A stretch of 64,000 bases of DNA from a virus (Duplodnaviria > Heunggongvirae > Uroviricota > Caudoviricetes), in the IMG/VR virus record IMGVR_UViG_3300008262_000052; one strand, written 5' to 3'. The notes under the pieces were generated by a model. It had not been told where the DNA came from. It did no database searches and was given only the letters and a program-made list of their open reading frames with translations. Within the stretch, counting starts at the first letter, position 1; each line of letters opens with the position of its first letter. Below, piece by piece: positions 9,543-63,401 of this stretch. Position numbers and translations under genes: made by a program.

Positions 9543-12422
9543 ATGAAAGACTTCATTATTCCCTCGGACCGCGATTTTGGCACGCCCTATGTGCGTTCGA
9601 CCGCTACGGTGACCCTGAACATCGACGGGTTCGATGTGACCGTGCCCAAAGACACCAGCATAATGCGAGCCGCCGCCGAGATTGGCATCACAGTGCCAAA
9701 GCTGTGCGCGACCGACAACCTTGAGGCCTTTGGCTCCTGCCGCCTGTGCCTTGTGGAAATCGAAGGCCGCAATGGCACGCCCGCCTCTTGCACCACGCCC
9801 GTTGCCCCCGGCATCCGGGTGAAAACCCAAACCGGCAATCTGAAACAACTGCGTCGCGGCGTAATGGAGTTGTATATCTCGGACCACCCGCTGGACTGCC
9901 TGACCTGCTCGGCCAATGGCGATTGCGAGTTGCAGGACATGGCTGGTGCCGTCGGCCTGCGCGATGTGCGCTATGAGGCGATCGACACCCACTTCCGCGC
10001 CAAGAACAACTCTGGCGAGGCCAATCCGCAGTGGAAAGCCAAGGACGAGAGCAACCCCTACTTCACCTATGACCCGGCGAAATGCATCGTCTGCTCGCGC
10101 TGTGTGCGGGCTTGTGAAGAGGTGCAGGGCACCTTTGCGCTGACCATCGAAGGTCGAGGCTTTGACAGCCGTGTGTCGTTCGGTGCAAAAACCGATGATG
10201 CGCTGGCCTCGGATTGCGTGTCCTGCGGTGCCTGCGTACAAGCCTGCCCGACAGCGACCTTGCAGGAAAAGTCGATCATCGAAATCGGCACACCGGAACG
10301 CTCTGTCATCACCACCTGCGCCTATTGCGGTGTGGGTTGCCAGTTTAAAGCTGAACTGCGCGGCGACGAGCTGGTGCGGATGGTCCCTTACAAGCACGGC
10401 AAGGCCAACCGTGGCCATTCCTGCGTCAAGGGCCGCTTTGCCTATGGCTATGCCTCCCACCAAGACCGCATCCTGTCGCCGATGATCCGCGACAGCATCA
10501 ACGACCCGTGGAAAGAAGTCTCGTGGGCCGAGGCGATGGAATTCGCCGCGAACCGCATGAAGGGCATAATTTCCAAATACGGGCAAAAGTCCGTGGGTGT
10601 GATCACCTCGTCGCGCTGCACCAATGAAGAAACCTATCTGGTGCAGAAACTGACTCGAGCAGTGTTCCTGAACAACAACACTGACACCTGCGCCCGCGTC
10701 TGCCATTCGCCCACCGGTTATGGCTTGGGTCAGACTCTTGGTACCAGTGCTGGAACGCAAGACTTTGATTCGGTAGAATATACAGATGTGGCCATTGTGA
10801 TTGGAGCCAATCCTGCTGTAGGTCACCCGGTCTTTGCAAGCCGTCTAAAAAAACGCCTGCGTAAAGGAGCGAAACTGATAGTCATTGACCCTCGCCGCAC
10901 TGAAATTGTAGTAAGCCCGCATATCAAAGCAGTACATCACCTTGCACTTACACCAGGCACCAACGTGGCCATGGTCACCGCACTGGCGCATGTGATCGTG
11001 ACCGAAAAGCTCTACAACGAAGAGTTCATCCGCACCCGCTGCGACTGGGATGAATTCCAAGACTATGCCGAGTTTGTCAGCCGCCCGAACCATTCGCCCG
11101 AAGCGGTGGAAATCCTAACCGGCGTCAAGGCCGAGGATGTCCGCGCCGCGGCCCGCACCTATGCCACCGGCGGCAACGGCTCGATCTACTACGGTCTGGG
11201 CGTGACGGAACATTCGCAAGGCTCGACCACCGTGATCGGCATTGCAAACTTGGCGATGATGACCGGCAACATTGGCCGTCCGGGCGTGGGTGTGAACCCG
11301 CTGCGTGGCCAAAACAACGTGCAAGGCTCGTGCGACATGGGATCCTTCCCGCACGAACTGCCGGGTTACCGCCATGTGAAGAACGACGATGTACGGGCAA
11401 TCTATGAAAACCTCTGGGGCGTGAAGATCGATAATGAGCCGGGCCTGCGTATCCCCAACATGCTGGATGCCGCCGTGGAGGGCACCTTCAAGGGGTTGTA
11501 CTGCCAAGGCGAAGACATCCTGCAATCTGACCCGGACACCAAGCACGTTGCGGCAGGTCTGGCAGCGATGGAATGCGTGATCGTGCATGACCTGTTCCTG
11601 AACGAGACCGCAAACTACGCCCATGTGTTCTTCCCTGGATCGAGTTTCTTGGAAAAGGACGGCACCTTTACCAACACTGAGCGCCGCATCAACATGGTAC
11701 GCAAGGTAATGGCTCCGAAGCCGGGTTATGCCGATTGGGAAGTCACCCAGTTGTTCGCTAACGCAATGGGTGCCAACTGGAACTACACCCACCCGGTGCA
11801 GATCATGGAAGAGATTGCCATGACCACGCCGTCCTTCGCCGGTGTCAGCTATGACAAGATCGAAGAGATGGGCTCGGTCCAGTGGCCCTGCAACGAAAAA
11901 GCGCCTGAAGGCACGCCTTTGATGCACGTCGATGCCTTCGTGCGTGGCAAAGGTCGGTTCATCAACACCGAATATATTGCCACTGATGAACGCACTGGCC
12001 CGCGTTTCCCGCTGCTACTCACCACGGGCCGTATCCTGTCGCAGTACAACGTGGGCGCCCAAACACGCCGCACAGCGAACAGTATATGGCATACTGAAGA
12101 TTTGTTGGAAATCCATCCCCACGATGCTGAAGTGCGCGGTGTCAAAGAGGGTGATTGGGTGCGTCTGGCCTCACGTGCCGGGGAAACCACCCTGCGAGCA
12201 ACACTGACCGACAAAGTCAATCCGGGCGTGGTCTACACCACCTTCCACCACCCCGACACCCAAGCCAATGTTATCACCACCGATTTCAGCGATTGGGCTA
12301 CCAACTGTCCAGAATACAAGGTTACGGCAGTTCAGGTGTCGCCCTCCAACGGCCCGTCGAAATGGCAAGAGGAATACAACGCTCAAGCCACTCTCTCACG
12401 TCGTATTGCAGCAGCGAAATGA
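9543..12422 (+). CDS. fdsA: formate dehydrogenase alpha subunit (FdsA/FdhF-type with N-terminal 2Fe-2S, 4Fe-4S and molybdopterin domains)
   Basis: N-terminus TVTLNIDGFDVTVPKDTSIMRAAAEIGITVPKLCATDNLEAFGSCRLCLVEIEGR (2Fe-2S NuoG-like). CxxCxxC ferredoxin motifs (CIVCSRCVRACEE, CVSCGACVQACP). Molybdopterin oxidoreductase body about 960 aa. About 60% GC against about 37% for the flanks. The true start is the ATG at 9543, because the upstream part of ORF 9414 is AT-rich phage DNA in frame by chance. Confidence 0.9.
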   Translation: MKDFIIPSDRDFGTPYVRSTATVTLNIDGFDVTVPKDTSIMRAAAEIGITVPKLCATDNLEAFGSCRLCLVEIEGRNGTPASCTTPVAPGIRVKTQTGNLKQLRRGVMELYISDHPLDCLTCSANGDCELQDMAGAVGLRDVRYEAIDTHFRAKNNSGEANPQWKAKDESNPYFTYDPAKCIVCSRCVRACEEVQGTFALTIEGRGFDSRVSFGAKTDDALASDCVSCGACVQACPTATLQEKSIIEIGTPERSVITTCAYCGVGCQFKAELRGDELVRMVPYKHGKANRGHSCVKGRFAYGYASHQDRILSPMIRDSINDPWKEVSWAEAMEFAANRMKGIISKYGQKSVGVITSSRCTNEETYLVQKLTRAVFLNNNTDTCARVCHSPTGYGLGQTLGTSAGTQDFDSVEYTDVAIVIGANPAVGHPVFASRLKKRLRKGAKLIVIDPRRTEIVVSPHIKAVHHLALTPGTNVAMVTALAHVIVTEKLYNEEFIRTRCDWDEFQDYAEFVSRPNHSPEAVEILTGVKAEDVRAAARTYATGGNGSIYYGLGVTEHSQGSTTVIGIANLAMMTGNIGRPGVGVNPLRGQNNVQGSCDMGSFPHELPGYRHVKNDDVRAIYENLWGVKIDNEPGLRIPNMLDAAVEGTFKGLYCQGEDILQSDPDTKHVAAGLAAMECVIVHDLFLNETANYAHVFFPGSSFLEKDGTFTNTERRINMVRKVMAPKPGYADWEVTQLFANAMGANWNYTHPVQIMEEIAMTTPSFAGVSYDKIEEMGSVQWPCNEKAPEGTPLMHVDAFVRGKGRFINTEYIATDERTGPRFPLLLTTGRILSQYNVGAQTRRTANSIWHTEDLLEIHPHDAEVRGVKEGDWVRLASRAGETTLRATLTDKVNPGVVYTTFHHPDTQANVITTDFSDWATNCPEYKVTAVQVSPSNGPSKWQEEYNAQATLSRRIAAAK

Positions 12423-12554
12423 CGAACAAGCATACACAAAAAAGTTCTTGACTGGTTGACTGTTTTAGCATATAAATAACTTGTGATGTTGAAGTTCACT
12501 GAACACGGATGAGACCCGGGGGCGGCACCCGGCAGGTCCACCATAAGAAGACTG

Positions 12555-12716
12555 ATGATGTATGTATATTACGATGAGAGTAAAGACAGAAGCGAAGATC
12601 TTGATTGGAAAAAGTACTGTGATGAACAGGTACCGACTGAGCAAGAACAGATCTTTTGGGGTAATGTAAGTATTATATTTGTTTTAGTATTAGGATTAAT
12701 CGCAGTATTTTTATGA
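12555..12716 (+). CDS. small single-TM protein (53 aa)
   Basis: ATGATG start downstream of a TATAAATA box at 12469. Hydrophobic C-terminus IIFVLVLGLIAVFL. Confidence 0.3.
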   Translation: MMYVYYDESKDRSEDLDWKKYCDEQVPTEQEQIFWGNVSIIFVLVLGLIAVFL

Positions 12717-12900
12717 TGGGCCTGACATAGGATCGATCAACGAACTAGGCAGGATGGAGTCACCGGGATCTAAGCGCCGTTACCGCGAAGAAAATGACAA
12801 CTGCAAATGAAAATTTTGCACCTTCTGAGTTTGCTCTAGCAGCATAACTACAGGGCGCCCGGGGAGAGCGTAGCAACAGAATCTCCTCATAAATACTATT

Positions 12901-29250: not shown

Positions 29251-31289
29251 AAAAACTGTTATTATCACCTGTTTGGAGCATTGTAATTTTAGGGTTGTTG
29301 GGCTGGTTACAGTTCAGTAACCCTGATTTTTTGGAAAGTCTACGTTTACGATATTTTGATCAGTTGATAGTAAATCAAGCACCTGTAGAAAATAACATTT
29401 ATACAGTTAATATAGATGAAGCAAGTATTACTGCTCGCGGTCAGTGGCCTTGGCCAAGAGGCGATTATGCTAAACTAATAGAGGATCTATATGCACGTGG
29501 CGCAGGACTAGTTGTGTTTAACGTGTTGATGAGCGAAACAGACAGAGCAGGACAAGACAGGATACTATCAACTACTATGGGTAATTATCCTGTTGTAGTT
29601 ACAATGTTAGGAACTGAGGAAAATAAAAATGAACCAATCAACCCTGGTGCTAGTATCATTAATAGTGACTTTATTGATCTTATCCCTGCCGTGCCTGGCA
29701 TCACAGCAAACGTGCCTGCCATTGAAAATGCAGCAGTTGGGTCAGGAATTATCAATACCTTTCCAGAAATTGATGGAGTTGTCAGACGTGCTCCGCTAGT
29801 ACTAGAAAGTGGAGGAATACTATACCCTAACGTTACTATGGAAGTGCTTAGAGTTCTAGCAGGGGATCCTAGTTTCCAAATCAAATTATCACCGTTGGGA
29901 GTTGACAAATTACGAATTCCGCAATACGGTGTACTACAAACTGATGGACTTGGTAGAGTATGGTTAGACTGGAGTCAAGGCTTTAGCAGTCACAGTGCAG
30001 CAGAACTACCTGCAGACTTTGCCGGAGGTATAGTATTTGTAGGTCCTACTGCGGCTGGCATTACACAACCAATTGCAACAGCCAAAGGCGGCGTGTGGCC
30101 ACATGAACTACAGGCTATGATGTTAGGCACAGTGTTTAATGCAAGTAACATAGAACGCCCTGCATGGTCACCAGGTGCCGAATTATTAGCATTTGTACTT
30201 GCCGGATTAGCACTAATAGTTGCTGCACGTTGGACTTATGCGGGCATTGGCATTTTTGTAATACTTGTAGGTGGGTCAATCGGTGGTAGCATCTATGCCT
30301 TTGCTACCTACAACTTCTTGATTGATGGATTTTTACCTGCGGCGTTTCTATTGCTTGTAGGTATTATACGTTATGTAATCAAATTTGTAAGTGAGTTCTT
30401 ACAAAAGCAAGCAATCAAGAAACAGTTCGAAGGATATGCATCACCTGCCGTAGTTAAGTTATTGCAAACAAACCCAGATCTTGTCAAGAAAGGCATGAAG
30501 AAAGAAGTAAGCATACTGTTTAGCGATTTACGTGGCTTTACACCATTAGGTGAAAGTTTCGGCGACGATGTTGCAGGACTTACTAAAATAATGAATGGAT
30601 ACATGGATGCTATCACACAGCCTGTGCTAGATGCAAACGGTATGATTATTAAATATATCGGTGATGCAAGTATGCATATACACAATGCACCAGTAGACGA
30701 TCCTGAACATGCAAAGACAGCAGTTGCTACTGGTTTAAAAATGTTACGAGCAGTAGAGAATTTTAATGAAACAGTCATCATACCCCAAGGAAGACCACCA
30801 GTTGGCATGGGCGCCGGAATCAACACAGGTCTCGGATACATCGGAGAAATGGGGTCAACCAAACGTCACAGTTACGACGTACTTGGAGACGCAGTCAGCA
30901 CCGCCGCAAGAATCGAATCAAAATGTAAAGAATACGGCTGCTTATTACTCGTGGGTGGCGCTACAGTAGAACAGTGCAAAGACGAATTCTTCTTCCTCAA
31001 AGTAGATGACTTAGCAGTTAAAGGTAAAACTGTAGGTGTTGCTATCTATACTGTATTAGACGATGTTAAACCAACATGGAAAACCAGTAAAAAACATCAT
31101 GATCAAATGCACAAACTATATCGTATGAAACAGTTTGATGAAGCAATAGAACAGTGTAATTTAATTCGCAGAGCATTTGACGGCAAAATGGAAAAATACT
31201 ACGATATGTGGATTGAACGTTGTGAATACATGAAAACGCAAACATTGCCAGCAGATTGGAATGGCGTGTTTATTGCCCTGACAAAGTAG
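29247..31289 (+). CDS. membrane CHASE2-sensor class III adenylate/guanylate cyclase
   Basis: N-terminal TM, periplasmic CHASE2-like region, three TM helices. Catalytic domain VSILFSDLRGFTPLGESFGDD...IKYIGDASMH...GAGINTGLGYIGEMGSTKRHSYDVLGDAVSTAARIES matches the CYCc pattern (F.D..GFT, GD, RI.S). GTG start. Confidence 0.8.
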   Translation: MKKLLLSPVWSIVILGLLGWLQFSNPDFLESLRLRYFDQLIVNQAPVENNIYTVNIDEASITARGQWPWPRGDYAKLIEDLYARGAGLVVFNVLMSETDRAGQDRILSTTMGNYPVVVTMLGTEENKNEPINPGASIINSDFIDLIPAVPGITANVPAIENAAVGSGIINTFPEIDGVVRRAPLVLESGGILYPNVTMEVLRVLAGDPSFQIKLSPLGVDKLRIPQYGVLQTDGLGRVWLDWSQGFSSHSAAELPADFAGGIVFVGPTAAGITQPIATAKGGVWPHELQAMMLGTVFNASNIERPAWSPGAELLAFVLAGLALIVAARWTYAGIGIFVILVGGSIGGSIYAFATYNFLIDGFLPAAFLLLVGIIRYVIKFVSEFLQKQAIKKQFEGYASPAVVKLLQTNPDLVKKGMKKEVSILFSDLRGFTPLGESFGDDVAGLTKIMNGYMDAITQPVLDANGMIIKYIGDASMHIHNAPVDDPEHAKTAVATGLKMLRAVENFNETVIIPQGRPPVGMGAGINTGLGYIGEMGSTKRHSYDVLGDAVSTAARIESKCKEYGCLLLVGGATVEQCKDEFFFLKVDDLAVKGKTVGVAIYTVLDDVKPTWKTSKKHHDQMHKLYRMKQFDEAIEQCNLIRRAFDGKMEKYYDMWIERCEYMKTQTLPADWNGVFIALTK

Positions 31290-33030: not shown

Positions 33031-33202
33031 AACGTATTCAGTTGAAGAAGTGTTTCAAGACATCAACGGCGACCCTGAGAACGTGTTAATGAATATTCCT
33101 CAGGAAATTGCTGAACAGTTGGGCTGGAAACCAGGCGACGTCTTAAAGATTGAAGTGTTAGAAGAAGGTGGCGTCGCTATATCCAAGGTAGAGAATGGCT
33201 AA
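33020..33202 (+). CDS. AbrB/MazE-like swapped-hairpin small protein
   Basis: [26 protein letters not shown] resembles the SpoVT/AbrB domain. Confidence 0.45.
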
Positions 33203-33410
33203 AGAAGATATATTAGAATTAGAAGGCAGTATCATAGAGGTACTGCCCAATCAAACATTTCGTGTTGAATTAGAAAACGGGCATAGAGTAACCTGTTATA
33301 CTGGAGGCAAAATGCGCCAGTTCAAAATTCGCCTGGTACAAGGTGATCGTGTTAAAATTGAAATGACACCATACGATCTTGACAAAGGCAGAATTATGTT
33401 TAGAATTTAA
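33195..33410 (+). CDS. infA: translation initiation factor IF-1
   Basis: [70 protein letters not shown] is collinear with bacterial InfA ([70 protein letters not shown]). Confidence 0.9.
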
Positions 33411-35151: not shown

Positions 35152-35712
35152 ATGCTAAACACAGAAATCCTAACAGATCTAAAGGCGTTTAATTGGCAAG
35201 GAATTGTTGAATATGGAAACTCTCTTGAAGACTTTAATGATGCACAATGGAGATTTCTCAAAGGTCTGATTGCAGAACTAACAGTAGAAACACACTCAAA
35301 CAATAATCTAAAATATGTCGGTGAAGATCACAGAGATTACGTTTGGCCAAAACACAACATCGACGTTGAATTAAAAAGTCAACTCAGCGATAATATGTAC
35401 AAAAAAGATGGTAGTCTACGTAAAAACTACGAAGTAAAACTAAGCAACACAAATGGCACCAACAAGAACAAAACCTTGCCCGAATCACATGTAGCAGATT
35501 GTGTGATTGTAGTACGCAACGACGGTGCTTTTGTTCTCGACAAAAAGACAGTGTTGAAACATGCCAAAGTTCAAGGCGACGGTGTTGTTGTTAAAGTACC
35601 CAAAGCAGCAATTACGGAAGTTTCTGGTCGTATCCTTTGTGAAAACACGTATAATAATAATCTAAAGCAACTAATTATGGATGCAATTCGCAATGACATT
35701 CCAGGTCTATAA
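35152..35712 (+). CDS. hypothetical protein, possible PD-(D/E)XK nuclease
   Basis: GEDHRDY...IDVELK could be a D...(D/E)xK core. Overlaps the methyltransferase start. Confidence 0.4.
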   Translation: MLNTEILTDLKAFNWQGIVEYGNSLEDFNDAQWRFLKGLIAELTVETHSNNNLKYVGEDHRDYVWPKHNIDVELKSQLSDNMYKKDGSLRKNYEVKLSNTNGTNKNKTLPESHVADCVIVVRNDGAFVLDKKTVLKHAKVQGDGVVVKVPKAAITEVSGRILCENTYNNNLKQLIMDAIRNDIPGL

Positions 35713-36565
35713 TCAAGACTGCATTACAGGAATCAAAGACCACGTTGCCGATGGCAACGTGGATCTTATTTTTACAGATCCGCCTTACGGTATTGACGGC
35801 GACAAACTGGACGCTCACTATCATCGTGACGAAAGTTTTGTTGTACCTGGGTATGTGGACGTTCCTTTAGAAACCTATGCACAGTTTAGCAAAGACTGGA
35901 TCGGCGAATGTGCTAGAGTACTACGTCCGGGCGGCAGTATCTATATTGTAAGTGGTTATACAAACCTTCATCATATTCTAAATGCATTGCACAGCACTGA
36001 CTTGAAAGAAGTCAATCATATCATTGCAAAATACAGTTTTGGTGTGAGTACAAAAAACAAGTGGGTCAGCAGTCACTATCACATTCTGTTTTGGCAAAAG
36101 CCCGATAAGGGCAAGCAAACAAGAACATTCAACAGTAATGTTTATTTCACAGATCAAAAAGACAGTTATCACGACCGTCTTACAGTGCAGGACATGCCTC
36201 GGGCTCATAATCCTGGACAATTGAAAAACAAGAATCAACTCAACGAATCGTTTATTGAAAAATTTGTTCTTTACAGCAGCAACAGAGGCGATGTTGTGAT
36301 GGATCCGTTCTGCGGAGGATTTACCACAGCCAGAACCGCACTACGCTATGGAAGAAAATTTGTTGGGTTTGAGATGAATAAAAATGCCTATGATGCATTT
36401 GTTCCTACACTGGACTCAGTCAAGGCTTTGCCAGATCCTACTCCAAAGAGTCCAGAAGCAGAAGAACTTGCCAAGAGAGAAAAAATGCGCGAAGGCTGGC
36501 GCAAAGACAGAAAAAAGAAAAAAGAACTAGATCCTAAATTGTTCGAAGTTAACAAAAAAAAATAA
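35681..36565 (+). CDS. DNA methyltransferase, beta-class (N6-adenine or N4-cytosine)
   Basis: Motif IV LIFTDPPYGI precedes motif I VMDPFCGGFTT (circular permutation of the beta class, PF01555-like). Lys-rich tail. Confidence 0.85.
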   Translation: MQFAMTFQVYNQDCITGIKDHVADGNVDLIFTDPPYGIDGDKLDAHYHRDESFVVPGYVDVPLETYAQFSKDWIGECARVLRPGGSIYIVSGYTNLHHILNALHSTDLKEVNHIIAKYSFGVSTKNKWVSSHYHILFWQKPDKGKQTRTFNSNVYFTDQKDSYHDRLTVQDMPRAHNPGQLKNKNQLNESFIEKFVLYSSNRGDVVMDPFCGGFTTARTALRYGRKFVGFEMNKNAYDAFVPTLDSVKALPDPTPKSPEAEELAKREKMREGWRKDRKKKKELDPKLFEVNKKK

Positions 36566-36568
36566 AGA

Positions 36569-36597
36569 TTGACAACCCGTGCGTCTTGTTGTATGTT
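36569..36597 (+). promoter_or_regulatory. sigma70-like promoter TTGACA-N17-TATGTT
   Basis: Upstream of the 36626 gene. Confidence 0.6.
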
Positions 36598-36625
36598 GAA
36601 CATGTAGGCACACAACGAGGCGGCT

Positions 36626-37330
36626 ATGGATACGTTTTCAACTGATGAAGCACTTAAACTATCATTTGCTATCTATCGTATCAACAAAAACTACTACAAA
36701 GAAACTGTATACGATAAGGATGGCAATGTTTCCTTTTGGGGCAACAAGGATGCTATCAAGTTTATGTTTGCTCTCAAGGCCATCAGCGAAGGCAGCAAGA
36801 ATCACTGGGTTCCTGAACAGTTCGAGCCTGTTGAAGTTACGAATGAAGATGTTGCTGCTCTAGAATCTGCCCGCAGTCATTTCAAGCGTTACACGTTTCT
36901 TATGATTGGCAACGATCTCAGTCAGTTTCAGCGTGATACGTTTGCTGCGTTTAGCAGCGAAGAATGTACACCTAAGAATGTAGGCTTTGTTGCTTATGTT
37001 CCTGCAATGATTCAACGAGAACTGCACGATCTTGCTTACCGTCGTCGTCTCAAAACTGATTTTGTTGATTCTGTGCATTATAACGTTGACAGTTCAATCT
37101 CAGGCGAACTGGAAATCCTTCGTTCGTTTTATCTCAAAGACTACAATCTTTACAGTTATATTGCTGGTGTTGGCGGCAATCTTGTGCATTTTAACAAAGA
37201 CAAAAAATACGAAATCGGCAGTAAATATAGTATAAGGGCAAAAGCCAAAAAGCATGAGATCGAGTATGACACTCGGTTGCCGATGACTAAATTGAATTAC
37301 GTTAAACTTTCATATATTGAGGAAAAATAA
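36626..37330 (+). CDS. hypothetical protein
   Basis: 234 aa, RBS GAGG. Confidence 0.5.
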   Translation: MDTFSTDEALKLSFAIYRINKNYYKETVYDKDGNVSFWGNKDAIKFMFALKAISEGSKNHWVPEQFEPVEVTNEDVAALESARSHFKRYTFLMIGNDLSQFQRDTFAAFSSEECTPKNVGFVAYVPAMIQRELHDLAYRRRLKTDFVDSVHYNVDSSISGELEILRSFYLKDYNLYSYIAGVGGNLVHFNKDKKYEIGSKYSIRAKAKKHEIEYDTRLPMTKLNYVKLSYIEEK

Positions 37331-37542
37331 TGGTTGTTGAATCTTTCATCTTCGGTACCGCAGTTGTGTTTACACTGTTTGGATATTCAGTGGGTCGTAC
37401 AAAAGCAAACTACGATCTGGTTGAACAGTCTGTTTCTACTACCATTGATAGCCTTGCTAAAGATGGCTATCTTAAAACAGTTGGCAGCGGTGACAATATG
37501 ATTATTCTTAAACACGATGACAAAGATGACCAAGCCACTTGA
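37330..37542 (+). CDS. small membrane protein
   Basis: TM helix IFGTAVVFTLFGY. Confidence 0.35.
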   Translation: MVVESFIFGTAVVFTLFGYSVGRTKANYDLVEQSVSTTIDSLAKDGYLKTVGSGDNMIILKHDDKDDQAT

Positions 37543-37679
37543 GTTAGAGCCGTTTTAGCGACTAAAGTCAGACGGTACAGTATCATTTACTAAACATAGG
37601 GAAACAGGCACAATGACTCCAGTGGATATGAAATAGTTTTTTCTTGTCCAATTGCGGTCTATGCCTTATAATAAAAAAT

Positions 37680-38279
37680 ATGATTAAGATCCAAGGCAAA
37701 CTCCCCCGCAAAGTATATCTTGCCTGCTCCGGCGGCATTGATAGTATGGCAATTTTAAATTTTCTACAAAACAATCATGATGTAACTGTATTACATTTTG
37801 ATCATAGAACCAGCAATTCTATGTACACTCTAGACTTTGTTGATGACTACTGTATTAAAAACGATATCAAATTTATCGGCGGTAAGATTCGTGAAGACAA
37901 GCCAAAAGATATGAGTCATGAAGAATTTTGGCGAGAAAAACGCTACGAGTTCTTGGACCTATTTACAGACGCACCTGTGATTACAGGACATCACTTGGAT
38001 GACTGCGTGGAAACTTGGATCTTTAGTTCGCTGCACGGTACTGGTAAAATTGTACCGTATCGTAGAAAGAACGTTATCCGTCCGTTTAGATTAAATATGA
38101 AACGTGATATTGCCTTGTGGTCTAATATGCACACGGTACCGTATGTTGAAGATCCTAGCAATGCGGATATCAAGTACACAAGAAACTATATTAGACATGA
38201 ACTAATGCCACACGCATTAAAAGTAAACCCAGGATTATACAAAACCATCAAAAAGAAGGTAATTGAAAATGGCTGTTAA
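37680..38279 (+). CDS. tilS: tRNA(Ile)-lysidine synthetase-like PP-loop ATPase (TilS N-terminal catalytic domain)
   Basis: PP-loop SGGIDS. HHLDDCVETWIF matches TilS hHLdDqaET. RPFRL..R.DIALW....H.VPYVEDPSN.D..YTRNYIRHELMP matches TilS RPLL..tR.el..wa......wieDeSN.d..y.RNflR..vvP. Start set at the internal ATG (ORF from 37644). Confidence 0.75.
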   Translation: MIKIQGKLPRKVYLACSGGIDSMAILNFLQNNHDVTVLHFDHRTSNSMYTLDFVDDYCIKNDIKFIGGKIREDKPKDMSHEEFWREKRYEFLDLFTDAPVITGHHLDDCVETWIFSSLHGTGKIVPYRRKNVIRPFRLNMKRDIALWSNMHTVPYVEDPSNADIKYTRNYIRHELMPHALKVNPGLYKTIKKKVIENGC

Positions 38280-38517
38280 AACAATTGAAACATATGTAGA
38301 CGTTGACGTAGATCTCGATGAGTTCGACGACAACGAAATAGTGGAAGAATTAAAAAACCGAGGTTATACTGTGTTAGCAGAATCCGCAGTTGATGTGGCG
38401 TTAAGCGACGAAGATCTTGAATATCTACTTACACTGCTTGACAAGCAAGACCGTAATTGGTATAATAATCGTGTAAGAGATAAAATTTTTGATCTACGTT
38501 ATCAGGGTAAACGATGA
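38263..38517 (+). CDS. hypothetical acidic protein
   Basis: 84 aa ORF. Confidence 0.4.
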   Translation: MKMAVKTIETYVDVDVDLDEFDDNEIVEELKNRGYTVLAESAVDVALSDEDLEYLLTLLDKQDRNWYNNRVRDKIFDLRYQGKR

Positions 38518-39008
38518 ACTTTATTGCACGACTTTTTGCTCCGCGGCACGAGCATGATTGGGAACTAGTAGCAGTCAACGACAAGTATCATACAACTTAT
38601 ACTGATACCAAAAAAACCAAGCATTGGCAGATACGGTTTTACAAATGCAACTGTGGCGAACGCAAGTTTAGTGACGACAGACCCTATATACACGTCGATC
38701 ACGAAGGCATAGAAAAGGCCCGAGCCAACTGGATTGATGCCGGCGTTGTTCCTAAGGATAGTTATCATCCTAGTCAAAGCCAACACTATGTTAAGATCGA
38801 TGACATTGAGCGTGAAAAACTAGATCCTATTCTTCAGTATCAAAAATCTCTTGACGAAATAAGCAAGAGTCTAAAAGTTGTAATCAACAGAGACTTTGAT
38901 CTAGAAACCAAATATCCTAAACTAAAATCTGCGGCAGACGAGTATCATTGTCAACTGGACAAATACCGTATGTTAGAGACTCTAAAAGGCGAGAGCAATG
39001 AGGCATGA
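38514..39008 (+). CDS. hypothetical protein
   Basis: ATGA-coupled. CNCGE Cys pair. Confidence 0.45.
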   Translation: MNFIARLFAPRHEHDWELVAVNDKYHTTYTDTKKTKHWQIRFYKCNCGERKFSDDRPYIHVDHEGIEKARANWIDAGVVPKDSYHPSQSQHYVKIDDIEREKLDPILQYQKSLDEISKSLKVVINRDFDLETKYPKLKSAADEYHCQLDKYRMLETLKGESNEA

Positions 39009-39204
39009 TTATTTAGAACTGAGCGAAACACTAGAAGACGATGACTATGGGTTGGTTGTTGGCAAAGACGGCAGTCTCAAAGGTATATGGGTTCCACGCG
39101 GCGAAGAACATTTAAAAGAAGTACCAAACACTATTGCAAGAATGTGTATTGAGTATTTTGGACTTGACCCTAACGACGAATCCAACTATAATACAATTCA
39201 TTGA
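38998..39204 (+). CDS. hypothetical protein
   Basis: 68 aa ORF. Confidence 0.35.
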   Translation: MRHDYLELSETLEDDDYGLVVGKDGSLKGIWVPRGEEHLKEVPNTIARMCIEYFGLDPNDESNYNTIH

Positions 39205-39214
39205 GGAGAAGATT

Positions 39215-39568
39215 ATGAACGCACAACAACCTGCACAGGGTATTTTAAAAACCAGCGAGTGGGGTGATAGCAAATGGTATCATATTCGTTGCAGTTGCGG
39301 CAATGATGATTGCTCACATGAACTGAATGTAGAAGCAGACGAAGTTGATGTTAGTGTTCATATCTATGCAAAGAACCATACTAAATGGTGGAAAATGAAC
39401 CGCTGGCAGCAAATTTGGCAAATTCTCATCAAAGGCTATGCCGAAATGGATACTACTATTGTGCTGGATGAGCAGACTGCAATTAACTATGCAGCCGCAC
39501 TTACCAGTGCAGTCACTGACGTAAAACAGTTCAAAGCCGACTATCGTGCTAAAAAGGAAGCAAAATGA
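39215..39568 (+). CDS. hypothetical protein (Cys/His-rich)
   Basis: Start at the ATG after the GAGGAG SD. CSCGNDDCSHE motif. Confidence 0.4.
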   Translation: MNAQQPAQGILKTSEWGDSKWYHIRCSCGNDDCSHELNVEADEVDVSVHIYAKNHTKWWKMNRWQQIWQILIKGYAEMDTTIVLDEQTAINYAAALTSAVTDVKQFKADYRAKKEAK

Positions 39569-43221: not shown

Positions 43222-44348
43222 TGGACGCAATTTATCAGTACATTCGCAACAATACATTCGAACGTCCGACACTGATTCTTGACATTGATCTTGTAGAAGA
43301 AAATTATCTAAACCTAAAAGCAGGTATGCCAGATGCTCATGTGCATTATGCAGTAAAGAGCAATCCGCATCCTGCTATTCTACAACGTCTTGTCGAACTA
43401 GGTTGTAGATTTGATGCTGCTAGTATGGGTGAGATTGAAATGTGTCTTGCTGCCGGTGCAGAACCAGAACACATTAGTTTTGGTAATACTGTAAAACGTT
43501 GGCAAGATATCGAATACGCATACAGAAACGATATTACATTGTTTTCTGCAGATGCTGAAGAAGAACTGGAAAAAATTGCACGTCATGCACCCAACTCACG
43601 TGTGTTTATTCGTGTGCTGATTGGGCAAACCGAAGCAGAATGGCCACTGTCACGCAAGTTCGGTTGTGATCCTGCTATGGCATTAGGCCTTATGGGCTAT
43701 GCAAAAGAACTAGGACTTGAACCAGTTGGTATCAGTTGGCACATTGGTTCGCAAACCAAACATCCTGAGATGTGGTATGACACACTAGAGTTGATGGGTA
43801 ATCTTTGGGACGAAATCTCTCAGTGCGGTTACGAACTTACACTGGTAAACATCGGCGGAGGCTTTCCTGCCTACTACGGTGTAGAAATTACACCTCCTGA
43901 AGAATACGGCAAAAAACTAATGGATCGTGTTCGTAAGCAGTTTCCAGGAGCCAACTACATTATGGTAGAACCTGGTCGCGGCTTAGTAGGCAGCGCAGGT
44001 TGCATTGCCTCAGAAGTATTGTTGGCAAGTAAGAAGTCATCAATGGATGTGGTTCGTTGGGTATACCTAAACGTAGGTAGATTTAGTGGTCTTGCAGAAA
44101 CAGAAGGCGAAGCAATCAAGTATCAATTTACTGTGCTAGGCAAAGAAAATTCTCCAACAGGTCCTTGTATACTTGCTGGTCCAACCTGTGATAGTGCCGA
44201 TGTAATGTATGAAAGAAACAAAGTACAATTACCAATTGACATTGAGAGTGGAGATGTGTTAGTAATTAACAGTTGCGGTGCTTACACAAGCACATACAGC
44301 ACTATAGCATTTAACGGCTTTCCGCCTCTAGAAGTAAAGGTAGTATAA
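43221..44348 (+). CDS. PLP-dependent fold-III decarboxylase (carboxynorspermidine/ornithine/DAP decarboxylase family)
   Basis: HYAVKSNPH (PLP Lys in the AVKSN motif). GGGFPAYY. 375 aa fits carboxynorspermidine decarboxylase size. Confidence 0.75.
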   Translation: MDAIYQYIRNNTFERPTLILDIDLVEENYLNLKAGMPDAHVHYAVKSNPHPAILQRLVELGCRFDAASMGEIEMCLAAGAEPEHISFGNTVKRWQDIEYAYRNDITLFSADAEEELEKIARHAPNSRVFIRVLIGQTEAEWPLSRKFGCDPAMALGLMGYAKELGLEPVGISWHIGSQTKHPEMWYDTLELMGNLWDEISQCGYELTLVNIGGGFPAYYGVEITPPEEYGKKLMDRVRKQFPGANYIMVEPGRGLVGSAGCIASEVLLASKKSSMDVVRWVYLNVGRFSGLAETEGEAIKYQFTVLGKENSPTGPCILAGPTCDSADVMYERNKVQLPIDIESGDVLVINSCGAYTSTYSTIAFNGFPPLEVKVV

Positions 44349-45151: not shown

Positions 45152-45206
45152 AACAATGATGTGGTAGCACAACGGTATTCGAATCCAGCCTACATCACCA
45201 AACTAT

Positions 45207-45289: not shown

Positions 45290-45374
45290 GGGAGAGACGC
45301 CTCAAGGTGAGGCAGTGGACTGTAACTCCATCGCGGCAACGCACGGACGGGTTCGATTCCCTCCTCTCCCACCA
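45290..45374 (+). tRNA. tRNA-Tyr(GTA)
   Basis: Anticodon loop CTGTAAC. Long variable arm (GCG-GCAA-CGC). Acceptor GGGAGAG/CTCTCCC. T-stem with 2 mismatches. CCA encoded. Confidence 0.65.
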
Positions 45375-46278: not shown

Positions 46279-46353
46279 TGCCTCTTAGCTCAGTGGTAGA
46301 GCAATCCCCTGATAAGGGATAGGTCACTAGTTCAAATCTAGTAGGGGCAACCA
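46279..46353 (+). tRNA. tRNA-Ile(GAT)
   Basis: Anticodon arm ATCCC-CTGATAA-GGGAT. T-arm ACTAG-TTCAAAT-CTAGT. CCA encoded. Confidence 0.75.
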
Positions 46354-50965: not shown

Positions 50966-50996
50966 ACTAGGGTAGGTGATACACAAGGATAAAATC

Positions 50997-52130
50997 ATGA
51001 ACTACCGTTTTCCTCTGATCCGTCACATCAGTGATGTGCTGCCGCACGTAGAAGGCCGTGACGAATTTGTCGTAGCCGAACGTGAAGGCTATACTGTGGT
51101 CAACTATGTGGTGGCTATGGCCGATACCTTTGACATGACTGGCCCAGACGACTTGGGCGGTGCGATTCGTCGTGAATGCCGTGGTCTTATCTTTGGTCCT
51201 GATGGTGCTCTTATGAGCCGTCCGTTCCACAAGTTCTTCAACGTGAACGAGCGTGAAGAGACTCAAACTCATACTGTGGACATGTCGCAGCCTCATGTAA
51301 TCATGGAAAAGATGGATGGTAGTATGATCCGTCCGATCTTGGTTGATGGGCACCTGCGACTGGCTACCAAAATGGGAGTGACGTCGGTTGCTATGGATGC
51401 CGAGGCGTGGCTTGCTGCTCAGGACCGCAGATTGAAGGAATGGCTTCGCACTATGGTTGATCTTGGATTAACTCCGCTGTTTGAGTGGGTAAGCCCATTT
51501 AACCAGATTGTGCTGGCTTATGAGGCAGCAGACCTTGTGTATCTTGGTACTCGTGACAACTTGACTGGCGAATATGCAATGGATATCTCTTGTCCGTTCA
51601 ACACTGTTACGCAGTATGGTAGTGTAGCAGGCAATCTTGTTGACTACATTGCTCGTCAGCGTGGTGCAGAAGGTCGTGAAGGCGACATCATCCGCTTTGC
51701 AGATGGTCACATGTGCAAAATCAAGAACGACTGGTACGTGCGTATTCACAAGACTGTGGATCGTATTGTGTTTGATCGTAACATTGTGAACTTGATCCTC
51801 AACGAAGAAGTTGATGATGTTGTTCCTATGTTGCCTAAAGTGCAGGCAGATCGTGTGCGTGACTTTGAACGCAGATTTGCAGAACGTTTGCACAACACTG
51901 TGGAAAAGTATGATCGTTACTGGAACACTGTTGTTGCGTCAGGACTTGATCGCAAGCGTTATGCACAGGAGTGGATGCCTACGATCAAGAACCGCGATCC
52001 GTTTGCGGCTGTGTATGTGTTTGGTCGTTTTGGTGATCGTGACGGTCGTGCTATGATATTGGATCACATTGAAAAGTCAATCACTACCAACGTTCGTTGG
52101 GATGAATGTGCTGCTTGGATGGGAATGTAA
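50997..52130 (+). CDS. rnlA: RNA ligase 1 (T4 RnlA family)
   Basis: ECRGLIFGPDGALMSRPFHKFFNVNE matches T4 Rnl1 [36 protein letters not shown] is the ligase KxDG motif. REGDIIRFADGHMCKIKNDWYVRIH matches [25 protein letters not shown]. Confidence 0.9.
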   Translation: MNYRFPLIRHISDVLPHVEGRDEFVVAEREGYTVVNYVVAMADTFDMTGPDDLGGAIRRECRGLIFGPDGALMSRPFHKFFNVNEREETQTHTVDMSQPHVIMEKMDGSMIRPILVDGHLRLATKMGVTSVAMDAEAWLAAQDRRLKEWLRTMVDLGLTPLFEWVSPFNQIVLAYEAADLVYLGTRDNLTGEYAMDISCPFNTVTQYGSVAGNLVDYIARQRGAEGREGDIIRFADGHMCKIKNDWYVRIHKTVDRIVFDRNIVNLILNEEVDDVVPMLPKVQADRVRDFERRFAERLHNTVEKYDRYWNTVVASGLDRKRYAQEWMPTIKNRDPFAAVYVFGRFGDRDGRAMILDHIEKSITTNVRWDECAAWMGM

Positions 52131-59755: not shown

Positions 59756-59774
59756 AATATACGGAGCGTGGGCC

Positions 59775-59851
59775 GGACGGTAAGGCACAGTTGGGAGAGC
59801 GTATGCTTTGCAAGCATAATGTCGCCGGTTCGATCCCGGCAGGGTCCACCA
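59775..59851 (+). tRNA. tRNA-Ala(TGC), irregular acceptor
   Basis: D-arm AGTTGGGAGAGC. Anticodon arm TATGC-TTTGCAA-GCATA. T-arm GCCGG-TTCGATC-CCGGC. The acceptor pairs only 5 of 7. Confidence 0.5.
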
Positions 59852-60074
59852 TTAATATAATCACTGTTTTCCGAGGGGCTAGAAAAGCCGCGTTGAACAT
59901 TGTGTAAGTTGTTTAACTTGAACAGTACTGCACAATCAGTAAACACGGTATCAAAGTTGCAGTCCGAGACCAGTTAAGAACTTGAAGATTAACGGGGAAG
60001 CCCAGAGATTAACAAGCAATTAACAAATCCCGCTTTGATGGCAAGTTTTCTAGTCACGCGGTAAACAGTGATAT

Positions 60075-62063: not shown

Positions 62064-62734
62064 AAACAAGTAAGCAAGAAGTTGTTTACACGCTCTTTGA
62101 TAATTTGGTAAACACTGTGTTTACACAGGTATATTGGGTAGTAGCACTGTCAAGTAACTAGGGTGGTTCCTAGCGAAACAACAGGGCCACACGCTACTGA
62201 CAATAAGTTGAAATGGCAATGCTAACCACTATGTCTATCGACTGACGATAAGATAAACAATATATCGTTGTAAACACAGTAAGATGGGCGGCTTAGCGTC
62301 CACGTAAGGGTAAGTGCAGTAATGCACCCAAAGCAAGGTTTCCTATAAACTTGCGCCAGCAATGGTCCATCTAAGCAAGCCTGAACTAGAGTTGACTCGG
62401 GTACCGAAAGCAACTCCCGTCCGTAGAAAGGCGGTAGGCAGTAAGTTAGGAATAGTGTCCGAAAGGATAGTCGCAGAGCCGGTCGGTGAGCGATAAGAGG
62501 GTTGGCGCCCAAACACTGTTCAGCCAAACTAACGAATGCTGAAAGTTAACAGGTAGTTAACTAGTCTGAGCCCGCAAGCAAAGGCAAGTTAGCATCTTGA
62601 GAGTGGAAGGGTTAGGCCCCGGATACTTAAAAAGACGTTGAGTAGCCCGCAAGGCAAAAGACAGTCGGTGTGTTGTATTTTGCGTCTAACAAGACGTGAA
62701 GCAACTGGGACAGCACATCGAAGTAGGTTCGCAA

Positions 62735-62810
62735 ATAGCTCAGCGGTAGAGCAATTCCATTGAACGGAATCGGCGAAGGTTCAATCCCTTCTTTGATAAA
62801 CAAAAGCGAA
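62735..62810 (+). pseudogene. tRNA-like element with TGA anticodon and no long variable arm
   Basis: D-arm TAGCTCAGCGGTAGAGC. Anticodon arm ATTCC-ATTGAAC-GGAAT. T-arm GAAGG-TTCAATC-CCTTC. The acceptor pairs only 5 of 7 and there is no CCA. Confidence 0.3.
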
Positions 62811-63325
62811 AGACTGTCCCGGTACGTTGTGAAAGGTGGTTAATGCCACACTCGCAAGAGAATGTGGTCTACGGATGCTCGCAAGGCTGATGTAGTTGTT
62901 CGGAAAGATAGCGTAACGGTTTAGCGACTGTGAACTGCTCGCAAGGCAGACGAAAGATAGAAGGACGAGTAGCAACGTGCGACGAGAGAAACGCCACTCT
63001 CCAAAAAAGGCACCACTGGGAGATACAAGATGACCGTAAAAGGCTCTTGTGGATAACGACAGAACGTGGCTCGCAAGGCTAACGGTAATGGTCAAAGGCT
63101 CCTACAGCAAGGCATAATCTCAGCCTATGCAAAAATTAAGTTTTTTTAACTTAACTTGTTGAACAGTTTTCGAGTTCCGACCCACTTGGCTGTAGGCGAC
63201 TACTCCATTTCCGAGACTGTTCAACTAGTTAAGTCTGTTTACACATACATCCCGTAGATGAGGGTCGGCCACCCAAACTTTACTGAAACACGCAATGCGC
63301 TGGGGTGTATGTGTAAACAGAATAT

Positions 63326-63401
63326 TGCGGGGTAGAGAAGCGGCATCTCGACTGGCTCATAACCAGTAAATCGCAGGTTCGAGTCCTGCCCACCGCAACC
63401 A
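63326..63401 (+). tRNA. tRNA with CAT anticodon (elongator Met or Ile2/lysidine type)
   Basis: D-arm GAGA-AGCGGCA-TCTC. Anticodon arm ACTGG-CTCATAA-CCAGT. T-arm GCAGG-TTCGAGT-CCTGC. One extra nucleotide at the T/acceptor junction. CCA encoded. Confidence 0.6.

Follow-up and report, generated by a model that had tools for sequence, protein, structure and literature searches.

An open reading frame (ORF) at positions 37680..38279 on the plus strand of a jumbo-phage sequence (Caudoviricetes; IMG/VR record IMGVR_UViG_3300008262_000052) encodes a homologue of the lysidine synthetase TilS. The stretch analysed, here called the window, is 64 kb long and approximately 41% G+C, and nearly all of its genes lie on the plus strand. 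The predicted protein, here named TilS-N, is 199 aa and consists of a stand-alone N-terminal PP-loop catalytic domain, without the C-terminal domains CTD1 and CTD2. The ORF is open from 37644, where there is an in-frame TTG upstream of the ATG at 37680. As the first three residues specified from the ATG (M1-I2-K3) are invariant in relatives, we conclude that the ATG, and not the TTG, is the true start. TilS-N is confirmed as a homologue of the TilS N-terminal domain (NTD) and has all of the conserved NTD motifs, including SGGIDS (residues 17–22), HHLDDCVET (residues 104–112) and RNYIRHELMP (residues 168–177).

The sole Pfam domain reported for TilS-N is PF01171 (E = 3e-31). TilS-N also passes TIGR02432 (lysidine_TilS_N), an NCBIfam equivalog-domain model with a curated cut-off of 93.6 bits, with a score of 114.4 bits (E = 6e-33, profile positions 2–189 of 189), while its 52.3 bits for the full-length equivalog NF007942 fall short of the 606 required. 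When a profile of the TilS-N family was compared with the PDB, three distinct sequences were matched, all of them TilS (1WY5, 3A2K and 1NI5). The alignments cover the NTD only, extending over residues 25–228 of the 317 aa Aquifex aeolicus TilS, 21–221 of the 464 aa Geobacillus kaustophilus TilS and 13–198 of the 433 aa Escherichia coli TilS. A Foldseek search with the AlphaFold2 (AF2) model of TilS-N also returned TilS as the best match, followed by TtuA/NcsA, with MnmA and QueC far lower. A preliminary description of this locus, made from the sequence alone, had proposed a TilS catalytic domain reduced to the N-terminal part of the enzyme, and the motifs, profile matches, structural matches and length reported here bear out both parts of that proposal. 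Clustering with QueC or MnmA, which would have overturned it, was not seen.

Other assignments were tried and rejected. TilS-N scores 24 bits for TtcA, where the cut-off is 272, and its scores for LarE and argininosuccinate synthase are far under the NCBIfam cut-offs. Matches in PHROGs to QueC-like and PAPS-reductase families are marginal (E approximately 2e-3 to 5e-3) and limited to the PP-loop; they were set aside because TilS is favoured by NCBIfam, by the PDB comparison and by fold alike. The PP-loop thiolases TtuA, TtcA and NcsA belong to the same family, PF01171, and are the next-best structural neighbours of TilS-N but, unlike TilS, gave no PDB sequence match. Cysteines C16 and C109 are conserved in close relatives of TilS-N. 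However, they are replaced by V and N in the homologue from phage MIJ3, and an Fe-S site is therefore unlikely; a reading of TilS-N as an Fe-S thiolase was rejected on these replacements and the low TtcA score.

TilS enzymes have been described as always having at least one appended domain, with type II comprising the NTD and CTD1 and type I including CTD2 in addition (PMC11947777). TilS-N has neither an appended CTD1 for tRNA recognition nor the acceptor-stem-reading CTD2 of type I, and a Pfam scan of seven ORFs in this region (35681..39568) gave no hit to any C-terminal domain of TilS. Its best solved relative is the type II TilS of A. aeolicus (1WY5, 2E21 and 2E89; sequence E = 5e-29, fold E = 6e-11), with which the SGGxDS, HHLxD..ET, RP, EDxSN and RNxIRH motifs align. 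However, the A. aeolicus enzyme continues into a CTD1 that reaches the anticodon stem and elbow of the tRNA, whereas TilS-N ends at the NTD. The type I enzymes of E. coli (MesJ/TilS, 1NI5) and G. kaustophilus (TilS-tRNA complex, 3A2K) have an NTD homologous to TilS-N, but the CTD1 and CTD2 with which type I enzymes read the acceptor pairs 4:69, 5:68 or 3:70 (PMC11947777) are absent from TilS-N. The NTD-only architecture falls outside both described types, and we found no publication that discusses it.

A search of a 5.8-billion-protein collection returned 2540 clusters that match TilS-N at a threshold of E ≤ 1e-10. The best 120 of these 2540 clusters are all 167–221 aa and 58–98% identical to TilS-N, and several of the 120 sit on contigs of 250–374 kb. 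In 24 family members that are 57–88% identical to TilS-N, the TilS motifs are invariant; this extends to S17, G18, G19, D21 and S22 of SGGxDS and to the PP-loop, HHLDD..ET, RPF, EDxSN and RNxIRH residues. The identical TilS-N protein sequence recurs in many metagenomes (35 index blocks). Among bacteria and archaea (185,579 species, each represented by a single genome), the only close relative is on a single 3.5 kb contig of a metagenome-assembled genome, and the remaining matches are ordinary cellular TilS that are at most 38% identical. Deposited phages with relatives are the Pseudomonas jumbo phages PA5oct and MIJ3 (46–48% identity over the whole length, 203 aa) and two uncultured phages of 634–642 kb. 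At the nucleotide level, megablast found nothing matching the locus among deposited phages, and an exact 42-mer taken from the gene did not occur in IMG/VR. These data show strong purifying selection on TilS-N, whose family comprises thousands of approximately 200 aa proteins. The family is a conserved virus-specific clade and, as the motif residues are invariant across the 24 members, TilS-N is not a pseudogene. At least 103 TilS-N loci were found in IMG/VR and 80 of these were fetched and analysed. There are tRNA genes within 10 kb of the TilS-N gene in 60 of the 80, and on jumbo-phage contigs the tRNA arrays are typically 5–7 kb away.

The preliminary description paired the enzyme with a tRNA that has a CAT anticodon and, as it was read there, a non-initiator anticodon stem, and took it to be tRNA-Ile2. 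This tRNA, here named CAT-B, is present at 63326..63401 on the plus strand with an encoded CCA (TGCGGGG TA GAGA AGCGGCA TCTC G ACTGG CTCATAA CCAGT AAATC GCAGG TTCGAGT CCTGC C CACCGCA ACCA). Its D stem (GAGA/TCTC) contains A11:U24 and G12:C23, which are complete fMet discriminators according to Silva et al. (PMC1635315), and neither an elongator-type D stem (Y11:R24) nor the acceptor features of Ile2 are found. The acceptor pairs are G2:C71, C3:G70, G4:C69 and G5:C68, resembling the E. coli tRNAfMet stem; the TilS identity elements C4:G69 and C5:G68, which the preliminary description had proposed looking for, are not there. G2:C71 and C3:G70 correspond to the formylase determinants, accompanied by a weak U1:A72 pair rather than a mismatch, and U1:A72 is also seen in an Acinetobacter initiator to which TFAM assigns class X. 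In the anticodon stem, G30:C40 and G31:C39 are present and the 29:41 pair is U:A, a departure from the strict rule of three G:C pairs. In initiators, 29:41 and 31:39 are naturally variable, G30:C40 is essential and is sufficient in E. coli, and the first anticodon-stem pair (29:41) is A:U in all alpha-proteobacterial initiators (PMC5389676). The U29:A41 of CAT-B is pyrimidine:purine, unlike the purine:pyrimidine pairs of natural initiator variants.

CAT-B shares 78% identity with E. coli metY, compared with 57% for metT and 63% for ileY. Distances were also obtained with a Silva-type difference count against 12 non-redundant references from two phyla, taken from a highly redundant portion of the labelled tRNA(CAU) set of PMC5143459. 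This count separates the initiator class cleanly and does not separate Ile2 from Met. Over 60 core positions, CAT-B has a mean of 16.0 differences from the initiator references, of which there are three, versus 28.2 from Ile2 and 29.5 from Met. Tests of the acceptor stem were less tidy: instead of seven regular base pairs, the stem has a mismatch at G6.A67 and is longer by one nucleotide on its 3' strand, which is CCACCGCA compared with CCCCGCA in contig L036. As the stem is irregular, initiator function is inferred rather than assured. Sister tRNAs of the CAT-B type were found in L036 (U1:A72, U29:A41), in the uncultured phage LR745206 (C1 opposite U72, A29:U41), in MIJ3 (C1xA72, A29:U41) and in L072 (A1xA72), each accompanied by a separate non-initiator CAT tRNA. 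On these features CAT-B is classed as an initiator-type tRNA, consistent with the homologue of initiation factor IF-1 encoded in the window (33195..33410, plus strand; 71 aa; PF01176, 81 bits), and the earlier descriptions of its anticodon stem as non-initiator and of the tRNA as tRNA-Ile2 do not hold.

A second CAT tRNA, here named CAT-A, is represented in the window by a 43 nt remnant at 45158..45200 on the plus strand, between tRNA-Cys and tRNA-Glu. A clean 32 nt internal deletion at 45177/45178 has taken out the anticodon arm, and ARAGORN detects no tRNA in the remnant. The window therefore contains no intact candidate tRNA-Ile2. CAT-A is intact and 75 nt long in the sister contigs L001, L002 and L095 (GATGTGG TA GCAC AACGGTA GTGC A ACGGT CTCATAC GCCGT AGGTT GCTGG TTCGAAT CCAGC CTACATC ACCA). 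L001 and L002 encode a TilS-N protein identical to that of the window, while L095 is a more divergent relative. Apart from the CAT-A deletion, L002 and the window are separated by a single mismatch over 17.5 kb. In a metagenome scan for the CAT-A locus, one more intact copy was recovered and the deletion was not seen again. In a divergent relative, CAT-A is 100% conserved despite flanking DNA that is only 81–96% identical. The Cys-CAT-Glu order is kept in L017, L027, L050/53 and L057/58, and these orthologues all share U3:A70, with very different anticodon stems. The deletion in CAT-A is one of three clean deletions (32, 78 and 62 nt, at 45177/45178, approximately 59788 and 63143/63144, respectively) that distinguish the window from near-identical sister contigs; these may be strain variation or an assembly artefact.

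The class of CAT-A was considered using the same references. CAT-A has U3:A70, and the GGCU / C3:G70 acceptor of every Met reference examined is absent. Its mean distance to the Met references is 25.5, where the Met-to-Met range is 15–17. LR745206 has three CAT types, and its U3:A70, C4:G69, C5:G68 tRNA has the same GCAC/GTGC D stem as CAT-A and is distinct from its GGC-type tRNA. Counting CAT-A as Met gives an intact tRNA set for all 20 amino acids, whereas counting it as Ile2 would leave elongator Met as the sole missing amino-acid class. BLAST comparison of CAT-A with annotated phages was uninformative, returning only default 'tRNA-Met' or unrelated labels. Judged from its sequence, CAT-A would be either Ile2 or elongator Met, and we regard the two as about equally probable. 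The CAT tRNAs of L078/L079/L084 and L083/L087/L089/L090 are 72 nt with aberrant or shortened D arms (e.g. GGTGACACGTTGCGGTAACGACTTGGGTCTCATAAGCCCG).

The tRNA-Ile(GAU) gene that the preliminary description also listed is at 46279..46353 on the plus strand. It reads AUU and AUC, and its C4:G69, U12:A23, C29:G41, A38 and A73 form the E. coli-type set of elements for isoleucyl-tRNA synthetase (IleRS). No tRNA with a UAU anticodon (TAT) is in the window set. AUA accounts for 11.6–12.5 per 1000 codons and 18–20% of Ile codons in a crude gene set, so the expectation that it would be frequent is borne out to a moderate degree. For AUG, the figure is 26.6 per 1000 codons.

TilS from phages and other viruses has been published before, as has the idea that a virus may supply AUA decoding. 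The TilS of MIJ3 was published in 2019 and the MIJ3/PA5oct gene is annotated as tilS; in the available part of that report, no mention of the missing C-terminal domains was met (PMC6892783). The MIJ3/PA5oct protein (gp263) is NTD-only like TilS-N, and its gene is 7–10 kb from a tRNA cluster with two tRNA(CAU) genes. The copy closer to E. coli ileY differs from it at 10 core positions, one copy has G3:C70, and these phages also carry one tRNA of initiator-like type but lack an elongator Met. Two of the MIJ3 tRNAs are clearly Ile2-like, whereas this window has none intact, and the phage lineage and host of MIJ3 are different. The uncultured phages LR745206 (L096) and LR756502 (L097) have an NTD-only TilS inside large tRNA arrays. 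Chloroviruses have been proposed to use a putative lysidine synthase for their AUA-rich genes (PMC7589089); by description the proposed logic is the same, with an AT-richer virus supplying TilS, but these are eukaryotic viruses and the function is predicted. Phage RsoM2USA has a 349 aa TilS. T4 is not known to encode a TilS, and its tRNA-Ile(CAU) (L159) is therefore presumably modified by the host enzyme. The T4 tRNA retains C4:G69 and C5:G68, the TilS determinants of E. coli, while CAT-A and CAT-B do not. It is a phage-encoded AUA decoder that needs lysidine, as is a vibriophage tRNA(CAU), which is reported to bear k2C34 (PMC13191261).

On balance, sequence and genomic setting make it somewhat probable that TilS-N is a phage-specific minimal TilS that lysidinylates a CAU elongator tRNA for the reading of AUA. 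On an elongator tRNA with the anticodon CAU, the enzyme would adenylate C34 at C2 and then add lysine to form lysidine, and the lysidine-bearing tRNA would be charged by IleRS and read AUA. The substrate would be host tRNA-Ile2 or the phage CAT-A, and not CAT-B. This copy of the genome has no intact phage-encoded partner within the 64 kb and, as no intact phage substrate is found there, host tRNA-Ile2 would be the substrate here unless the CAT-A deletion is an artefact. The system envisaged in the preliminary description, in which the enzyme and CAT-B together decode AUA, does not survive the assignment of CAT-B to the initiator class and the loss of the only other candidate in the window.

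Several observations weigh against TilS-N as an AUA-directed lysidine synthetase with a phage partner. Every TilS enzyme characterised so far includes a CTD1 as a minimum, and when CTD2 alone is removed, activity falls sharply and discrimination at the 3:70 pair is relaxed (PMC11947777). The AF2 model of TilS-N is moderate (pLDDT 71.5), with residues 10–100 good and the C-terminal half poor. The window represents 64 kb of a phage genome of at least 297 kb, and within it CAT-A is deleted while TilS-N is intact. CAT-A also lacks C4:G69, U12:A23, C29:G41 and A38, all of which are present in the phage tRNA-Ile(GAU), and has an Ile/Met difference ratio of 0.97 on a small reference set in which the ratios are 1.56–1.80 for Met and 0.66–1.14 for Ile2. 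A CAT tRNA is within 10 kb of the TilS-N gene in only 24 of the 80 relatives' loci, and in many relatives tRNA-Cys is the final tRNA that ARAGORN detects in the DNA examined, no CAT gene following it. Finally, L096 (12233..12307 and 35433..35504) and L097 (13523..13596) encode tRNA-Ile(UAU) in addition to TilS-N. As both are encoded, these phages would have two alternative AUA-decoding routes.

Some of these points would be accommodated if TilS-N acts on host tRNA-Ile2 only, raising its modified fraction, with CAT-A being an elongator tRNA-Met. A benefit would be expected when phage AUA demand is up or host TilS is limiting. Retention of TilS-N where CAT-A is deleted, the many relatives that show no nearby CAT tRNA, the lack of IleRS elements in CAT-A, the level of AUG use and the intact 20-amino-acid tRNA set that CAT-A would complete as Met are all in keeping with this. 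We nevertheless consider it unlikely, though a real contender. An extra enzyme without its own substrate would bring little gain if host TilS already modifies a small pool, the acceptor shared by all Met references examined is missing from CAT-A and its orthologues, and the TilS of MIJ3 is paired with Ile2-like tRNAs in a phage with no elongator Met.

Alternatively, TilS-N may have another activity, using a different amine donor, cytidine or nucleic acid, or converting host tRNA-Met or tRNA-fMet, the loss of the CTDs having freed its specificity. Removal of CTD2 relaxes specificity in Burkholderia cenocepacia TilS, TilS-N has no CTD at all, the family is at most 38% identical to cellular TilS and the anticodon stems of candidate partner tRNAs vary widely. 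However, every conserved TilS NTD motif is kept and invariant, the equivalog-domain model for lysidine synthetase is passed and the genomic setting is one of tRNA arrays, all of which make such a change improbable. A PLP-dependent ornithine/diaminopimelate/arginine decarboxylase is encoded 5 kb downstream of TilS-N (43326..44348, plus strand) and was considered as the supplier of another amine; as it neighbours TilS-N in only 2 of 81 loci, this was rejected.

Lysidinylation of CAT-B by TilS-N, such that CAT-B serves as the phage tRNA-Ile2, was the model of the preliminary description. CAT-B is the sole intact CAT tRNA in the window, its anticodon loop (CUCAUAA) is the same as that of tRNA-Ile2, and an NTD-only enzyme might read little beyond the loop. 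Set against this are the complete fMet discriminators (PMC1635315), the C3:G70, G4:C69 and G5:C68 acceptor pairs, the similarity to metY in both identity and core differences, the occurrence of the same tRNA type beside a separate non-initiator CAT tRNA in L036, L096 and MIJ3, and the co-encoded IF-1 homologue. The model is already largely refuted and we regard it as very improbable. That TilS-N is a decaying, functionless fragment of a captured bacterial tilS, as its being shorter than all characterised TilS might suggest, is scarcely credible given thousands of same-length homologues with invariant catalytic motifs and the MIK start, and a protein sequence that is identical across many metagenomes.

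Two proteins are frequent neighbours of TilS-N in the relatives' loci. Just upstream on the same strand is a conserved 234 aa protein (36626..37330), a homologue of which precedes TilS-N in 54 of 81 loci, in many cases abutting it, and was not detected in the MIJ3 locus. It has no Pfam, PHROG or PDB sequence match; ECH_2 was rejected, as it was reported in 7 of 17 members with E values of 3e-4 or above, under any meaningful threshold. The AF2 model of this protein is of low confidence (pLDDT 68.8) with a beta-rich C-terminal half, and its matches to oligonucleotide/oligosaccharide-binding (OB) folds, which include anticodon-binding domains of aminoacyl-tRNA synthetases, are not significant (E = 0.03–0.2). 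The model offers a weak lead that the protein may be an OB-like nucleic-acid-binding, trans-acting recognition subunit, and plain synteny with TilS-N is at least as likely. Downstream is a conserved 68 aa protein with no family match (38998..39204, plus strand), a homologue of which is found downstream of TilS-N in 53 of 81 loci. An N6/N4 DNA methyltransferase (35681..36565) and a CHASE2-adenylate/guanylate cyclase protein (29529..31289), both on the plus strand near TilS-N, are, like the decarboxylase, not conserved TilS-N neighbours in relatives. Further downstream, a T4 Rnl1-like RNA ligase of the tRNA-repair type is encoded at 50976..52130 on the plus strand (PF09511, 91.6 bits, plus T4_Rnl1_C). 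In sister contig L007, a ribosomal protein L7/L12 homologue (PF00542) lies just upstream of the shared region.

The RNAs of the window comprise 26 tRNAs detected by ARAGORN, a tRNA-Tyr and a chimeric tRNA detected with Rfam, a two-piece transfer-messenger RNA (tmRNA) and a GOLLD RNA. The tRNA-Tyr(GTA) at 45290..45374 (plus strand) has a long variable arm and was missed by ARAGORN (Rfam 33.8 bits), but it can be read directly from the letters. The chimera, at approximately 59762..59852, was produced by the 78 nt deletion, which joined the first 26 nt of tRNA-Ser(GCT) to tRNA-Ala(TGC) at its D-loop, with the loss of both tRNAs. The GOLLD RNA (62665..63126, plus strand) is full-length (RF02032, 191.7 bits against a gathering threshold of 150) and contains a tRNA-like element at 62728..62801 that ARAGORN calls tRNA-Ser(tga), without a CCA end or a good acceptor stem. 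The 62 nt deletion is 17 nt 3' of the GOLLD match. The tmRNA (12444..12891, plus strand) is of the permuted, alpha-proteobacterial type (RF01849, 95.6 bits; RF04321, 89.2 bits). The tmRNA type and the non-G:C first anticodon-stem pair of CAT-B together hint at an alpha-proteobacterial host. Just upstream of the tmRNA, at 10001..12000, is a G+C island (0.57 versus approximately 0.41 elsewhere). Among the relatives, suppressor-type tRNAs with CTA or TTA anticodons are present in L036 (20130), L086 (11314) and L068 (18525), where ARAGORN labels them 'Pyl(cta)' or 'Stop(tta)', which suggests stop-codon recoding in these relatives.

Nearly every bacterium needs TilS to live, and the enzyme has to avoid tRNA-Met, with its identical anticodon, at all times. 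Its fidelity has been attributed to the C-terminal domains, and how CTD2-less TilS recognises its tRNA and rejects tRNA-Met has been described as an unresolved, open question (PMC11947777). One reading of the family, which we hold to be doubtful, is that these approximately 200 aa phage proteins represent a third, minimal lysidine synthetase architecture that needs no covalently attached tRNA-recognition domain. Ile2 would then be told apart from Met and initiator tRNAs by the anticodon loop alone. Alternatively, discrimination might come via co-evolved phage tRNAs, such as the Cys-CAT-Glu tRNA with U3:A70, or via a separate subunit, for which the 234 aa neighbour with its possibly OB-like C-terminal half would be the candidate. 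If a minimal architecture is confirmed, jumbo phages would hold a self-contained, portable AUA-decoding module that bypasses the TilS identity rules of the host.

For annotation, the lesson is that a CAT tRNA near a phage TilS is not to be assumed to be tRNA-Ile2. The domain-less TilS and its abundance in jumbo phages are under-appreciated and bear on the question of TilS specificity, as an abundant and conserved catalytic-domain-only family provides a test case for recognition by the catalytic domain alone. If TilS-N is active, it would show that large phages bring the AUA-decoding step itself, beyond tRNAs alone.

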